DNA from: a virus
IMG/VR virus record: IMGVR_UViG_3300021399_000004
Location: 105,339-169,338 of that record
Reading direction: 5' to 3' (one strand)
DNA length: 64,000 nucleotides
Part shown: piece after piece, positions 1-19,444 of the stretch
Layout: each line of letters starts with the position of its first letter
Numbering within the stretch: the first letter of the stretch is position 1
The notes under the pieces: model-generated
The model's database searches: none
Told to the model about the DNA's origin: nothing
Seen by the model: the letters and a program-made list of their open reading frames with translations, nothing else
Position numbers and translations under genes: made by a program

Positions 1-860
1 GGGGTTTTGCGGCGAGTGACAAAATCTACGGTGTCGCCAAGATCACGGAATGGGAAATATTTGATACCAATTGATACGGCGTGACGCTTTGCAATGCGGG
101 AAAGAATATAAGTTTCAATAATGGCATCGTCCAGGGCTGTGTGACTCTCTATGAAATCATATTTGTTACAGAGATATTGATAAGTAGTTTCGGCGCTGGT
201 CTTGAAATAAGTTCCGGAGGCGGTCAGTAGGCCATGTTTGAGGCACTCGGTTTTATAGGTGGCATTATTCAGAAGATGAGAAGTAGCAAGCCCCCAAAGG
301 TCAAAGAGCGGATAGGTTTCGCCGCGGAAAGTGAAGGCGTCCGGGTTAAAGTCTTTGTCAGAATCTTTCTTGTAGGGTTCATTCGCAATCTTCCGGCAGA
401 GATTTTTTTGAATCTGTTCCCACTTCTGATAGTCGGGGCTGTACAGTTTGCGAATATACAATTCAGTGAACGGGATGGCCTTCTTAAAGTCAAACATTGC
501 GTTAAAGGCTCCAACAGCGTCAACTTTGTGCAAGTCGTTAATGAAAATTTCCATGACCGTATCCCACGGGGCAAGAACGGTTTCTTTATTTTCCAGCATT
601 GCCAGATACCGAGGGCGCTTTTCCGCATAATAGGCGGTATTGAATACGGCGGGAACGGCGAACGTTTCGGCAATCAGAAATTGCTTGTTTTCCAGAATAT
701 CGCCCTGCCGGTTAGTAATAGTCCAGCCAATATCGTAAATGAGCGGCCTTGCAATAGCGATCTTCTTCTTCTTTTCGGGATCACCGTCGGCAATTTCAGA
801 GGCGAACGGGAGGGTAGCGGTTTCGGTATCGACAACCATGTACAGACGGCGCTTGCTCAT
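1..860 (-). CDS. DnaQ-like DEDDh 3'-5' exonuclease; 3' end runs off the window
   Basis: Not in the ORF track because there is no stop inside the window. ATG at 858-860 with SD GGAAAGGA upstream. I read the frame open down to position 3. Motifs VVDTETATL, AFNAMFDF and HTALDDA match Exo I/II/III. Paralog of 8803..9564. Confidence 0.75.
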   Translation of the reverse strand, partial: MSKRRLYMVVDTETATLPFASEIADGDPEKKKKIAIARPLIYDIGWTITNRQGDILENKQFLIAETFAVPAVFNTAYYAEKRPRYLAMLENKETVLAPWDTVMEIFINDLHKVDAVGAFNAMFDFKKAIPFTELYIRKLYSPDYQKWEQIQKNLCRKIANEPYKKDSDKDFNPDAFTFRGETYPLFDLWGLATSHLLNNATYKTECLKHGLLTASGTYFKTSAETTYQYLCNKYDFIESHTALDDAIIETYILSRIAKRHAVSIGIKYFPFRDLGDTVDFVTRRKT

Positions 861-970
861 ACGGCAGAAGTCCTTTCCGGTTTGAAGTGTTTTCCTTCAC
901 TTGATGGGTACAGTATAACATAAGCGGTGATAAAAGTCAATAGGGAAATTTGATGGGCATAGCCGTATTA

Positions 971-990
971 TTAGATGTTCAAACATCTAA
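971..990. repeat. 20-bp palindrome copy 1 (centre CA), shared by divergent promoters
   Basis: ttagatgttCAaacatctaa. 30 bp from -35 935..940 (-10 912..917, gene 1..860). 29 bp from -35 1020..1025 (-10 1042..1047, gene 1074..1583). Confidence 0.95.
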
Positions 991-1019
991 AAATGTTGAA
1001 GGAAAATTAAAAATATGGA

Positions 1020-1047
1020 TTGACTTTTTTATAAAGTCGAGTATAAT
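1020..1047 (+). promoter_or_regulatory. Promoter of the inverted cassette 1074..1583
   Basis: TTGACT (1020..1025), 16-bp spacer, TATAAT (1042..1047). Confidence 0.7.
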
Positions 1048-1073
1048 ATAATTGTACCAAGAGAAAGGAGCCA

Positions 1074-1583
1074 ATGAAGATGACTGATTACAAGCAGGAA
1101 GCCCGTAAATTTTTGAAAGAATTTTCTCCTGCGTTAGAAAACTATAATGGTTCACTGACGTATATGTGGCAGAAAGCCAAAGAATATAATAAAGGTAGAA
1201 CGAAAATAAATCAAATTGTTTGTAGAAATGGTGCTACTCGGATAGCTCTTATCGGCAAGGATTTTGTTGTAAAGATGGATTATGATGCTGATGATGATAT
1301 AAAAATGTTTGGTGGATGCGGGAAAGAATACGCTTTGTATAGAAAATGTGTTCGTGAAAATTCGCCTTATTTGCATTGTTTATTGGAAATTGCTAAAATT
1401 AAAGTAGGCAATCATTTCTATTACATCATGCCAAAAGCAAACTATTGCGGGCATACTTCCTTCTTAAATTTCAATTGTGAAGAAAGAAACTGGCTGTATA
1501 GTCATGTAAATGATTTACATAATGGAAATATTGGAAAATATAACGGTAAACCTGTGGTTATTGATTATGCCTGTCAGTTCTGA
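1074..1583 (+). CDS. Small protein-kinase-like phosphotransferase (putative)
   Basis: Only plus-strand gene of the left arm. SD AAAGGAG, TGA stop inside the terminator stem. Motifs: FVVKMD (beta3 Lys), EYALY (alphaC Glu), NDLHNGNIG (D-x-H-x-x-N catalytic loop), VVIDYA (metal-binding Asp). Call rests on motif recall only. Confidence 0.45.
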   Translation: MKMTDYKQEARKFLKEFSPALENYNGSLTYMWQKAKEYNKGRTKINQIVCRNGATRIALIGKDFVVKMDYDADDDIKMFGGCGKEYALYRKCVRENSPYLHCLLEIAKIKVGNHFYYIMPKANYCGHTSFLNFNCEERNWLYSHVNDLHNGNIGKYNGKPVVIDYACQF

Positions 1584-1588
1584 CAGGC
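1569..1588 (+). terminator. Intrinsic terminator of 1074..1583 (stop codon inside the stem)
   Basis: GCCTGTCA-gttc-TGACAGGC followed by ATTTTCATT. Confidence 0.65.
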
Positions 1589-1606
1589 ATTTTCATTATT
1601 TGTAGA

Positions 1607-1626
1607 TTAGATGTTTGAACATCTAA
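1607..1626. repeat. Palindrome copy 2 (centre TG)
   Basis: Lies between the convergent terminators of 1074..1583 and 1670..2002. No promoter is adjacent. Confidence 0.95.
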
Positions 1627-17250: not shown

Positions 17251-17283
17251 ATAATAATAATAATAATAATAATAATAATAATA
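17251..17283. repeat. (ATA)11 trinucleotide microsatellite
   Basis: ataataataataataataataataataataata. Confidence 0.9.
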
Positions 17284-17858
17284 AAAATCTTTTATTGTAA
17301 AATCTATCATTATTATAAAGCGACAAATATTATAATGTTTATTATAAATATTAATATTACTTATTATATTTTGATTATTTAATTTATTTTAATTAGCAGC
17401 TGCGAAAATTTTATTAATAATATATTATTATCGCTGATCTATTTATCTCTTGTTCATTAATATATTATAATAACTCACGTGCCTGACACTGGCTATGTAT
17501 AAAGTTAAGAAACTTTTCCATAAAGGCGCCCTTCCTACATAGTTCTTTGAAGAAGAAGAAGATGAATAACTAAATAATCTTAACATCTAAAAAGATACAT
17601 CTAAAAATTCTGAGTTTGTTTAGCTCTTTTATTTATAAACATAAAGTAGCTTGCTCTTTTGGATATAAATGTAATGTGGCTTATCGGTTATTGTTAGATG
17701 TGTTAAAAATTATATGATGGTTATTTTTCAGCTCGTTTTTAGATCATTTTTTATTGCGACTTTATTCAACTGTATATGCACACATCTAAATAATGAGTTA
17801 GAAGAACCATACAAAAAGTCCCTCTGCCCGGCGGGGCAGAGGGTGGAAGGGAAGGGGC

Positions 17859-18062
17859 TCACCCCTTCCTGCAGCAGAAGTGAGTGGTCACGGGGTAGAG
17901 CCGCATGATATGCTTAACGATTTCGTAGGTGCCGCGGTAGGACGTCTCGTCATTGACTTCCCACTCTTCACCGGTTTCAACGACGCGGAGGCGGTAACCG
18001 AGGCAGAGGTAGTTGGTGGCAGTGGCATAGTCGCCATGGGAAATCTTGAATTCCTTCATCAT
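17859..18062 (-). CDS. Hypothetical small protein (67 aa), GC-rich block
   Basis: ATGATG at 18062 after GAAAGGAAGG. The 139-aa track ORF is an over-extension across the upstream gene. TGA sits in the loop of GAAGGGG-CTCA-CCCCTTC. Confidence 0.55.
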   Translation of the reverse strand: MMKEFKISHGDYATATNYLCLGYRLRVVETGEEWEVNDETSYRGTYEIVKHIMRLYPVTTHFCCRKG

Positions 18063-18126
18063 TGTATGTACCTTCCTTTCATTTGATGGGTCGGGCGGGG
18101 AGGGGGTGTGCCCCTCCCCGTTCGTC

Positions 18127-18345
18127 TTACCACAACCACTGGCGGATTTCCTGCATGATGCCGCGGTTCCAGTTGCGGCGGTCTTCGAAGTAGAACCCGC
18201 GCGCCTCGGGGTAGTGTTCGCGCGCCTTGCTGTACTTGCGCTCCTTCCACAGGTCAAGTTCGTCTTCGTCGAGGTCAAGGTTCAAGGTGTAGCGGTCGAT
18301 CTCGATCTCGTCGCCGCACTCGTCAATCATAATCAGTACCATCAT
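18127..18345 (-). CDS. Hypothetical small protein (72 aa, acidic)
   Basis: SD AAAGGAGGA then ATGATG; TAA stop; flanked by GC-rich hairpins. Confidence 0.55.
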   Translation of the reverse strand: MMVLIMIDECGDEIEIDRYTLNLDLDEDELDLWKERKYSKAREHYPEARGFYFEDRRNWNRGIMQEIRQWLW

Positions 18346-18405
18346 TTTTGTATCCTCCTTTTTTGTGGTGGGGAGGGGAGGGCTTGCGCCCTCCCCCGAG
18401 GGGCT

Positions 18406-18717
18406 TTACTCGGCTTTGGTCTCGTACCAGTAATCGTCGTTGGTGTTCCAGGCGTGGAACTTGTGCAACCACTCATTGTTCCAGAACTTGATCACGTCCT
18501 TGTAGTTCCAGTAACCGCGGTACCACGCATACAGGTGGGTGGTGTAGGTGAAGGAAACGGTGGCGGTGTAACCGGTGCTGTCCTTCGCGTCGCCCTCGAA
18601 GCGGAGGGTCAGCGGGCGGCGGTCGGTGTAGAAGAAGGAGCAAGCGGTGGCGAGCCAGCGGAGCATGTTGATCAGGTCGGTGTAGCAGGGGGCATGGACG
18701 GTGATGGTGCACTTCAT
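18406..18717 (-). CDS. Early protein family E (103 aa)
   Basis: SD GAAAGGAGAA then ATG. Paralog of 14316..14627 on the other side of the AT-rich island. Confidence 0.65.
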   Translation of the reverse strand: MKCTITVHAPCYTDLINMLRWLATACSFFYTDRRPLTLRFEGDAKDSTGYTATVSFTYTTHLYAWYRGYWNYKDVIKFWNNEWLHKFHAWNTNDDYWYETKAE

Positions 18718-18787
18718 GGTGTTTTCTCCTTTCGTGGTTGAAGAGATTTGAGGTGGGTGGGGAGGGCTCGCGCCCTCCCCGTGGGAA

Positions 18788-19444
18788 TTACCCCAGCAGG
18801 TTGTACGGGTTCTCAGCGATCCAGCGGGTCTTGGCCGGGGCCTTGGGGTTGAGCCAGTTCTGAATGGACATCGTGGTGGTGCCCTTGCTGCTCACCTTGA
18901 AGGTGTCCGTGCGGAACCAGTAGAGGGGGTCGCCCTTGGCCCGAGGGAACTCGGCGAGCCAGTCCATCCAGTCGCACCAGCGGGCGAGGACGAACACATC
19001 GTTGGCGGGGTTGAACACGACCAGCAGGGACGTCCGGGCGGCGAAGTTGTTGACGAGCGCCTCCGGGGAAGGCAGGACCCCGTGATAGGTCAACCACGTC
19101 CCGCCGCCGCTCTTGCACTCGACCGGACGACCTTCCCAGTACAGGTCGGTCTTGCCCTGCGAGCGGGGGAACAGGTCGCCCCAGTGGCAGGTGGTGGCCT
19201 TGCGCCAGTACAGGCGCAGCATCGCCTCGGCCGTCTTGCCGCCCCGGCCCCAGTCCGCGGTGTTCCACAGACCGCTGACCCAATTGATGGCGGGCATCCA
19301 CAGGTCGCGGGGCACGATGGTCTTGTTGAAGTCGAGGCCCTGTTCGGCCAGCCACTCCCACGCCTTGCCACCGCACAGGTCGGCGGGCAGGGTGGACTGC
19401 AGAGTGGCGAGAATCTCGGGGGTCAGGCGGGTGATCATGGACAT
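18788..19444 (-). CDS. Hypothetical protein (218 aa)
   Basis: ATG at 19444 after AAAAGGAGG. The track ORF to 19636 is an over-extension through the leader. TDLYWEGRPVECKSGGG loosely resembles a D..ExK nuclease motif, which is speculative. Confidence 0.55.
   Translation of the reverse strand: MSMITRLTPEILATLQSTLPADLCGGKAWEWLAEQGLDFNKTIVPRDLWMPAINWVSGLWNTADWGRGGKTAEAMLRLYWRKATTCHWGDLFPRSQGKTDLYWEGRPVECKSGGGTWLTYHGVLPSPEALVNNFAARTSLLVVFNPANDVFVLARWCDWMDWLAEFPRAKGDPLYWFRTDTFKVSSKGTTTMSIQNWLNPKAPAKTRWIAENPYNLLG

Follow-up and report, generated by a model that had tools for sequence, protein, structure and literature searches.

A TAG-free array of early-type gene cassettes beside a virion arm that reads TAG as glutamine in a large phage with SPbeta 'yon'-type virion genes

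A TAG-free left arm adjoins a recoded right arm

We analysed a 64-kb window of viral DNA (positions 105,339 to 169,338 of IMG/VR record IMGVR_UViG_3300021399_000004), which is part of one large phage genome with virion genes of the SPbeta 'yon' type, and found that its two arms differ in their use of the codon TAG: a left arm of small genes contains TAG neither as a sense codon nor as a stop, and a right arm of virion genes reads TAG as glutamine (Gln). We consider it likely that the left, early arm is free of TAG because its genes are translated before a suppressor builds up, the code boundary corresponding to the time before and after the suppressor becomes available. Judged from its sequence, this looks like an early arm of the host-takeover type, covering positions 1-19,444 and about 3 kb past the window's left edge. 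The whole window corresponds to positions 9,495-73,494, reversed, of a 129,144-bp ENA scaffold (ERZ28612961, SHIW14-1_SAMN02144230, scaffold_147). From its name, we take the sample to belong to the sheep-rumen study of Shi et al. 2014, and the phage probably comes from a sheep rumen. Two genomes 99% identical to each other (L003 and L004) were compared; L001 and L003 reach 8.3 kb past the window's left end and bring the readable DNA to 72 kb in total, and loci of IMG/VR relatives are numbered L153-L181. The main parts of the window are as follows.

1-14751, minus strand: early arm of 32 short genes (31 on the minus strand, one on the plus strand at 1074-1583), with TAA or TGA stops and no TAG
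971-15901: 33 copies of the 20-bp palindrome TTAGATGTTNNAACATCTAA (31 perfect, two with one mismatch), one per cassette boundary
14752-17800, no strand: AT island, 15-25% GC
17820-19444, minus strand: GC-rich block, about 60% GC, with G+C at third codon positions (GC3) of 0.76-0.93 and four TAG-free genes (three TAA stops, one TGA)
19739-19768, plus strand: late-arm promoter, TTGACA-18-TATAAT preceded by TG, which matches at 12 of 12 positions and is the right arm's only perfect one
19795-62744, plus strand: late (virion) arm of 18 tightly packed genes in which TAG is read as Gln

The gene list of the left arm was built from the combined structure of promoter, ribosome-binding site, open reading frame (ORF) and terminator, and was in agreement with public gene calls for the same contig when cross-checked against them. 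It comprises 36 genes in 1-19,444 (32 in 1-14,751 and four in 17,859-19,444), of which 35 lie on the minus strand and one, at 1074-1583, on the plus strand. Codons were counted in 35 genes (3,765 codons), and a 36th gene (8018-8167; 49 aa), added afterwards, is also TAG-free. Recomputing the census gene by gene for both arms, we found not a single in-frame TAG in the left-arm genes and no TAG stop (TAA 29, TGA 6, TAG 0; one gene runs past the window's left end). This reproduces what the initial annotation had stated, namely that none of these genes contains or ends in TAG, that six of them end in TGA, and that with no TAG at all they read alike under codes 11 and 15. The minus-strand ORFs of at least 30 aa that end in TAG are all nested out of frame within called genes, and those left-arm ORFs that are lengthened by TAG read-through merely extend into palindromes or promoters; letting TAG code for an amino acid makes little difference to the ORF coverage of 1-15 kb.

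With TAG at the right-arm rate of 2.0%, the left arm would hold about 76 of them; none was observed. Its 99 Gln codons are divided into CAA 26, CAG 73 and TAG 0, for which the probability is about 1e-15 if the TAG share of the non-giant late genes (29%) is taken; for the AT-rich early genes alone (37 Gln codons), the probability of finding no TAG is 2.7e-6. The TAG-free domain is exactly the domain of the cassettes and the GC-rich block, bounded by a helicase gene with eight TAGs on one side and by the first late-arm gene, with three, on the other.

In the right arm, 290 of 14,313 codons are in-frame TAGs (2.0%), and the genes end in TAA (14) or TGA (4) and never in TAG. The Gln codons of this arm are CAA 334, CAG 96 and TAG 290 (TAG = 40%). 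The share of 20-64 kb covered by ORFs of 100 aa or more is 0.47 under the standard code and 0.995 with TAG as sense, and the terminase TerL (591 aa, eight TAGs) and the portal protein (520 aa, 11 TAGs) give full-length matches to PHROG and tblastn homologues. We aligned TerL, the portal and a YonG-like protein with four standard-code homologues: two TAG columns of TerL hold Gln in 4/4 homologues (one of them in 'YQR') and a third reads Q/Q/K/K, one TAG column of the portal reads L/Q/Q/Q, and Gln is the commonest aligned residue overall. Because TAGs align with invariant Gln in TerL and the portal, we conclude that the right arm uses code 15.

Recoding extends past the virion genes to some genes of DNA metabolism. 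A ResIII-like helicase gene just past the early arm's other end (L003 15553-16962) carries the eight TAGs mentioned above, and the following two genes lie beyond the virion arm.

62782-63183, minus strand: gene with one TAG, past the virion arm
63162-63905, minus strand: RuvC-like gene with two TAGs; its homologues carry Pfam PF02075 (RuvC)

Querying with the helicase found no relatives, and the RuvC-like protein led to an IMG/VR relative with the standard code.

Relatives differ in code and keep the early genes free of TAG

A search of IMG/VR with the TerL protein found 29 loci with a TerL 69-79% identical to that of the window; at the nucleotide level, megablast of both arms against GenBank phages gave no match. 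The TerL genes of these relatives hold 10-12 TAGs (L154, L160, L163, L164, L171, L178, L181), six in the aligned part of L174, one or two (L157, L165), or none (L156, L167, L170, L172, L173, L177), and the clade may therefore provide a natural series for the onset of TAG-to-Gln recoding (0, 1-2 and 10-12 TAGs in TerL). In the heavily recoded relatives, the orthologues of early genes contained no TAG in 27/27 instances, and a switch to code 15 adds ORF coverage to the late arms but next to none to the early flanks. Absence of sense TAG in early genes is thus what does track the code in this clade. The same cannot be said of TAG stops, the scarcity of which is not special to this genome: in automated gene calls, TAG accounts for only about 4/90 of the early-arm stops in relatives with light or no recoding. 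Such rarity fits a loss of TAG stops before recoding, as proposed by Borges et al. (bioRxiv 10.1101/2021.08.26.457843).

Base composition separates early from late genes regardless of code

We computed GC and codon-usage statistics for the window, including the Gln codon split given above. Lines of 60 nt with at least 55% GC number 39/250 in 1-15 kb, 25/32 in 17.8-19.7 kb and 13/738 in the right arm; the GC-rich lines noted by eye in the initial annotation fall where it had placed them, and its estimate of about one third G+C for the right arm agrees with the mean of 0.357. GC3 is 0.61 in the left arm (range 0.30-0.93) vs 0.29 in the right arm (range 0.21-0.45; Mann-Whitney p = 7e-8). The left arm is a mosaic and not uniformly GC-rich, as it includes several AT-rich early genes and the AT island; the stretch at 15.0-17.8 kb, inside the left interval, is the most AT-rich DNA of the window (0.19 GC), and GC along the window steps from 0.43 to 0.19, 0.60 and 0.36. 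That base composition changes with the code, as had been claimed, did not hold: standard-code relatives show the same excess of early over late GC3 (L167 0.60/0.23; L177 0.47/0.26; L170 0.58/0.27), and the contrast is therefore not a property of the code. High early GC3 is an early/late property of the whole clade, separate from the code switch.

The early arm is an array of cassettes with phased palindromes

Nearly every early gene is a unit of its own. Such a unit opens with a palindrome and a promoter, continues with a leader that carries a Shine-Dalgarno site and with the ORF, and closes with a GC-rich hairpin and a T run. About 40 small transcription units, most of them with their own promoter, leader and terminator, make up this hyperplastic arm. 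The cassette promoters take the sigma-A form TTGACA-17-TGnTATAAT; ten sigma-A matches in the left arm are perfect (12 of 12, minus strand) and 16 near-perfect (11 of 12), nearly all of them on the minus strand, and the reversed unit at 1074-1583 (plus strand) has a promoter of its own. Promoter-like sites in this arm number 112 vs 57 ± 7 expected, and terminator-like sites 50 vs 16 ± 4. The products are mostly without assignable function, with some auxiliary ones (nucleotidase-like, PcfJ-like), a DUF8033 protein and several small families of paralogues; two paralogues match only the PHROG family phrog_20187 (unknown function), and by eye both appear to carry a DEDD-exonuclease-like motif. The sigma-A promoters, the threefold number of terminators and the small or auxiliary genes suggest that the left arm is expressed early. 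Late expression of the right arm is suggested, in turn, by its terminase, portal, capsid and tail genes and by their close packing downstream of one consensus promoter.

With the exception of the four genes of the GC-rich block, each early unit is preceded by the 20-bp palindrome. Copies are absent from the late arm, isolated half-sites reach 17,782, and at least four further palindromes lie past the window's left end (L003 12,202-15,187), giving a total of at least 37. For 31 of these, a sigma-A promoter with at most two mismatches follows at set distances, the interval from palindrome to -35 box being 7-9 nt (9 cases), 17-19 nt (15), 28-30 nt (4) or 36-39 nt (3), with none in between, and the sequences of the spacers are unrelated to one another. 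As the distances advance in steps of about 10 bp, the palindrome always faces the same side of the DNA as seen from the promoter. Such phasing is usual where a bound protein acts on RNA polymerase, and it suggests an operator or activator site. We rejected the possibility that the palindrome is a plain terminator: its stem is AT-rich, separate GC-rich hairpin and T-run terminators precede it, lying between the stop codon and the palindrome, and its distance to the -35 box follows the helical repeat.

In at least eight IMG/VR relatives, the 10 kb preceding TerL contain 8-14 palindromes and the late arm contains none. Lineage-specific versions, found on the early side only in the first ~6.5 kb of L154, L160, L163-L165, L171, L172, L174, L177, L178 and L181, include the 19-bp TTAGATGTnnnACATCTAA and forms with the half-sites TTAGGTG/CACCTAA, TTGGATG/CATCCAA and AGTTAGT/ACTAACT, as well as TTAGATG/CATCTAA. 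Exact 20-bp scans of IMG/VR, GTDB genomes and JGI metagenomes returned single isolated copies only; they missed these relatives because their palindrome is 19 bp long or has altered half-sites, and it was the TerL protein search that found them. The 19-bp version stands 9 nt from the -35 box in 41/52 cases and 28-30 nt in five of the remainder, and the spacing in L177 (32-44 nt) is outside the helical series. Both half-sites vary jointly between sub-lineages, as would be expected if a dimeric binding protein co-evolves with the palindrome. The initial annotation had tied this cassette architecture to the code, which it does not follow: palindrome cassettes are also present in L177, with no TAG in TerL, and in the lightly recoded L165 and L172.

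Comparison of the two near-identical genomes documented one exchange of a cassette, the cargo of which is the following.

3725-4816, minus strand: 350-aa PcfJ-like gene and its terminator (Pfam PcfJ, E = 4e-12)

The counterpart of 3725-4816 in a second genome, 99% identical and from a different sample, is an unrelated 122-aa gene (L003 vs L004; L004 7878-8272). From blastn, the sequence and the gene tables, one edge of the swap falls at the leader and ribosome-binding site and the other at the next palindrome. More broadly, the sampled flanks of relatives contain no homologue of 19/36 early genes.

The 5' leaders of the cassettes (e.g. 2003-2046, 3609-3650, 4809-4852, 5724-5768 and 8639-8682) share a small hairpin, read by eye from repeat families. 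Its stem varies yet stays paired (GGGG/CCCC, GGTG/CACC, AGTG/CACT) and encloses a AAGGAAAA loop, which is followed by AAACCAGAAAGG. The hairpin may be a stabiliser of the mRNA or a translation element.

Interpretation of the code boundary

We favour the following explanation, in which the early and late timing, the existence and timing of a suppressor and the selective reason are all deduced from the sequence. Early genes would be translated while TAG is a stop, and selection would keep TAG out of them; their TAA and TGA stops would still be valid after the switch. Genes translated later, with a phage amber suppressor tRNA present, would be free to gain TAG, probably via CAG-to-TAG changes under AT pressure. 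It is this order of events that would make the code boundary a divide between genes translated before and after the suppressor is available.

Several observations weigh against this explanation. A suppressor tRNA was not found in 72 kb of the 129-kb scaffold, so that the agent of the switch and its timing are assumed; ARAGORN predicted no tRNA in the 64-kb window, in the 8.3 kb past its left end or in the relatives' flanks, bar two tRNA-Lys in relatives. The arms are called 'early' and 'late' from the type of their promoters and from what their genes encode. Nor can the arm in which a gene lies simply predict whether it holds TAG, given that five late genes are TAG-free where about 12 TAGs would be expected in their 1,151 codons at the non-giant late rate. 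Finally, a high turnover of cassettes could explain part of the missing TAG without selection.

Turnover could also be taken as the whole explanation, the early cassettes having been acquired recently from standard-code donors and being too young to hold TAG, with no selection linked to timing. This is in line with the exchange of one cassette between two 99%-identical genomes, with the 19/36 early genes that lack a homologue in the relatives' flanks (none of the four GC-block genes has one there) and with a GC3 that ranges from 0.30 to 0.93 between adjacent cassettes. We nonetheless regard it as quite improbable: the AT-rich early genes, which resemble late genes in composition, are equally TAG-free (37 Gln codons, P = 2.7e-6), and the early genes kept in the clade (27-73% identity) have no TAG in any of the 27 instances in heavily recoded relatives. 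Because both the AT-rich early genes and the conserved orthologues are TAG-free, turnover is insufficient as an explanation. An assembly chimera, in which a GC-richer standard-code fragment was joined to an AT-rich recoded phage within 14.7-19.8 kb, is suggested by the sharp GC steps and by the low-complexity (TATATGTA)n tract at 16.8-17.2 kb, a typical failure point of assemblers, but is extremely improbable. A 9.7-kb Logan assembly from run SRR873602 is 100% identical to window 17,259-26,961 and crosses the junction, spanning the end of the AT island, the GC block and the first 7 kb of the late arm, and the GC-block gene 18788-19444 is also on a 140.5-kb Logan contig. Moreover, paralogues flank the AT island (the product of 18406-18717 is a paralogue of that of 14316-14627, E = 4e-10), palindromes or half-sites run to 17.8 kb, at least eight relatives keep the palindrome array upstream of TerL, and L156, L167 and L170 have the same order of AT island, GC-rich block and late arm. 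The second assembly, the paralogues, the half-sites and the relatives' layout thus uphold the view of the initial annotation that this is one genome.

A different relation between code and timing was put forward in that annotation, which placed the barrier to early expression of the right arm in translation and not in transcription: host RNA polymerase would transcribe both arms from the start, and the late TAGs would be an evolved timing device that blocks translation. Such a code lock has been proposed in the literature (bioRxiv 10.1101/2021.08.26.457843). Both arms do start from host-type promoters, with a sigma-A consensus in each; in the right arm the perfect one at 19,739-19,768 is joined by no other strong one in 19.4-39.4 kb, where 67 promoter-like sites were counted vs 65 expected. 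In addition, 11/13 TAG-bearing late genes reach their first TAG before 12% of the ORF has passed, so that unsuppressed late products would be short stubs, and TerL, the portal and the giant tail genes all require suppression. We find the proposal doubtful all the same. The standard-code relatives L167 and L177 (TerL 70-79% identical) share this architecture, and their late arm, like that of recoded members, begins with a sigma-A promoter that is perfect or nearly so; the clade therefore times or tolerates late-arm transcription without recoding, and the host-type late promoter is no evidence for translational control. Transcriptional regulation is hinted at by a CCACCAAC box that recurs upstream of this promoter in relatives with either code. 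The major-capsid-like gene, the tail-tube-like gene and three other late genes have no TAG and are hence unlocked, so the lock cannot cover the whole late arm, and because the helicase and the RuvC-like gene are recoded too, TAG is not specific to a virion and lysis programme. For recoding as an active timing device there is consequently evidence on both sides, and any lock would be partial.

There is also a broader and more tentative reading, which we hold to be possible but rather unlikely: two translation regimes would predate recoding, and their split would decide where TAG becomes sense. The GC3-rich arm would have been decodable by the host on arrival, and the late arm, rich in A+T at third positions, probably dependent on phage tRNAs. 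The early arm would then be a separate regulon driven by the palindromes, with its motifs serving as joints of exchange. If this is true, binding specificity would co-evolve with the TTAGATG, TTAGGTG, TTGGATG and AGTTAGT palindromes.

A mixed-code clade with one architecture makes it testable whether recoding is a timing device or the passive result of suppressor availability, and also whether a pre-existing AT-rich late arm channels where TAG becomes sense. The GC contrast, the cassette design and the host-type late promoter are not usable as evidence for a code lock. The phased palindromes and the cassette swap, for their part, make this clade a tractable Firmicutes-phage counterpart of the promoter-early stem-loop (PeSL) cassettes of T4 and of the SPBRE element of SPbeta, for the study of early-gene regulation and gene turnover.

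Organisation of the AT island, the GC-rich block and the late arm

Between the cassettes and the GC-rich block, the AT island contains the following elements.

14,752-15,110: diverged unit with a near-consensus promoter and no ORF
15,111-15,901: three palindrome and promoter units with no convincing ORF and a common ATGCGAGCTG box
15.4-16.7 kb: about nine AAAATGAAAT repeats
16.8-17.2 kb: (TATATGTA)n tract of 350 bp

Rfam gave nothing at gathering scores, and relaxing the scores yielded only spurious microRNA matches to the TATATG repeat tract. The island may serve in the origin of replication or give rise to small RNAs.

The GC-rich block consists of the following genes, all of which have a Shine-Dalgarno site and are followed by a GC-rich GGGGAGGG-type hairpin.

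17859-18062, minus strand
18127-18345, minus strand
18406-18717, minus strand
18788-19444, minus strand

No homologue of the product of 18788-19444 was found among 5.8 billion protein clusters, and the idea that the GC-rich genes were copied from the host is thereby unsupported. A long GC-rich 5' leader (19,445-19,560) stands upstream behind a possible extended -10 promoter.

The late arm is laid out as listed here, with Pfam matches to YonG_N, YonD_N and YonB along the called genes in the yon order of YonG, YonF (TerL), YonE (portal), YonD and YonB.

19,674-19,681: CCACCAAC(T) box, upstream of the late-arm promoter
19,795-21,090, plus strand: first late-arm gene, 431 aa, three TAGs, C-terminal zinc ribbon
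YonG-like gene, plus strand
21990-23765, plus strand: TerL
23762-25324, plus strand: portal
YonD-like gene, plus strand
26570-27184, plus strand: TAG-free gene
27200-28267, plus strand: YonB/major-capsid-like gene, TAG-free
28332-28769, plus strand: TAG-free gene
29202-29537, plus strand: TAG-free gene
32057-33067, plus strand: tail-tube-like gene, TAG-free
34051-50922, plus strand: giant ORF, 5,623 aa, 178 TAGs
52566-62744, plus strand: giant ORF, 3,392 aa, 56 TAGs

The CCACCAAC box is present in five recoded or lightly recoded relatives (L154, L157, L165, L171, L172) and in the standard-code L177, and not in L167; it may be a regulator-binding site. The first late-arm gene matched a sigma factor in one PHROG hit (E = 1e-14, C-terminal part only), and since Pfam and PDB sequences gave no support, the idea of a code-gated sigma factor was dropped. 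TerL is 31-35% identical to the terminases (YonF/TerL) of Geobacillus E3, Bacillus SPbeta-type, Enterococcus and Brevibacillus phages and of phAss-1. The ORF at 34,051-50,922 follows the tail-tube-like gene and one further small gene, and from this position it probably encodes a tape-measure protein; its TAG density is 3.2 per 100 codons, about three times that of other late genes.

The zone of TAG-free genes at 26570-28769 shows no gain in ORF coverage under code 15 in the recoded relatives L154, L171 and L178. It appears that genes with the highest expression avoid a codon that is decoded poorly. The capsid gene is followed by a hairpin terminator or attenuator at 28,276-28,302, and so is the tube gene at 33,083-33,106. 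Neither a release factor nor a lysis cassette was seen in the 72 kb, and scans of the window's proteins, to which the search was confined, brought out no evident integrase, repressor, AimR or YonO.

Comparison with known systems

Early genes compatible with the standard code, followed by recoded structural and lysis genes, are the published model of Borges et al. (bioRxiv 10.1101/2021.08.26.457843), whose recoded clades are the crAss-like, Lak, Agate, Jade, Garnet and Topaz phages. The initial annotation had called the present partition a clean and unusual example; clean it is, but not unusual, as the arrangement is that of the published model. What the window adds is a clean and statistically strong example of code partition in a new lineage, without a new principle. 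As in the phages of Borges et al., TAG encodes Gln and is concentrated in structural and some DNA-processing genes, a TAG-free block is present, stops are dominated by TAA and depleted of TAG, close relatives use the standard code, and the recoded part is low in GC. Unlike them, this phage is a rumen siphovirus with 'yon' virion genes, its code-neutral block is built of sigma-A cassettes with phased palindromes, its major-capsid-like and tail-tube-like genes are TAG-free, and the 72 kb contain no suppressor tRNA, release factor or lysis cassette that we could find.

TAG-to-Gln recoding with suppressor tRNAs is known from related SPbeta/EF1-like gut phages (PMC10607447), among them phAss-1 ('Phassvirus'; Babkin et al. 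2023), which has three tRNA-Sup(CTA) genes and a tape-measure protein of 3,150 aa. Both are large (~130-140 kb) siphovirus-type gut phages with a TerL related to those of Enterococcus EF1 and SPbeta-like phages. In phAss-1, TAG is read as Gln in the TerL, portal, tape-measure and tail-fibre genes, and recoding here likewise includes TerL and the portal; that only about 28% of the phAss-1 ORFs are recoded and that its tape-measure gene is very long we also count as likenesses. On the other hand, the two TerL proteins are only about 32% identical, three suppressor tRNA genes in phAss-1 stand against none found in 72 kb here, and the window's 5,623-aa probable tape-measure protein is far longer. 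The phAss-1 paper (PMC10607447) describes no early/late code partition, palindrome array or GC3 contrast.

The early array itself recalls two regulatory systems. In SPbeta, the 15-bp SPBRE element is bound at about ten sites by the master repressor MrpR, a protein of tyrosine-recombinase fold (PMC10516654). Phages of the SPbeta type are temperate, combine this control with the arbitrium system and have the YonO RNA polymerase. SPBRE is likewise a short element repeated at many early or lytic gene promoters, in a phage with a related 'yon' virion module, which makes for a functional analogy only; the element described here differs in being a 20-bp perfect palindrome at no fewer than 37 sites, placed upstream of the -35 box. 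No MrpR-like gene turned up, with no search having been aimed at MrpR. The PeSL elements of T4-type phages are mobile regulatory cassettes (PMC2839356, PMC4122927), and they share with our array a repeated early host-type promoter and palindrome that flank small unknown genes in a hyperplastic region, as well as gene replacement between near-identical genomes that ends within a conserved motif (one case here). The phage family, host phylum and motif sequence are unrelated, PeSLs belonging to T4-type myoviruses and the present array to a siphovirus; the PeSL stem-loop terminates the gene upstream of it, and our cassettes have separate GC-rich intrinsic terminators and a palindrome placed at helical-turn steps from the -35 box. 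The early array is an analogue of PeSL and not a member.

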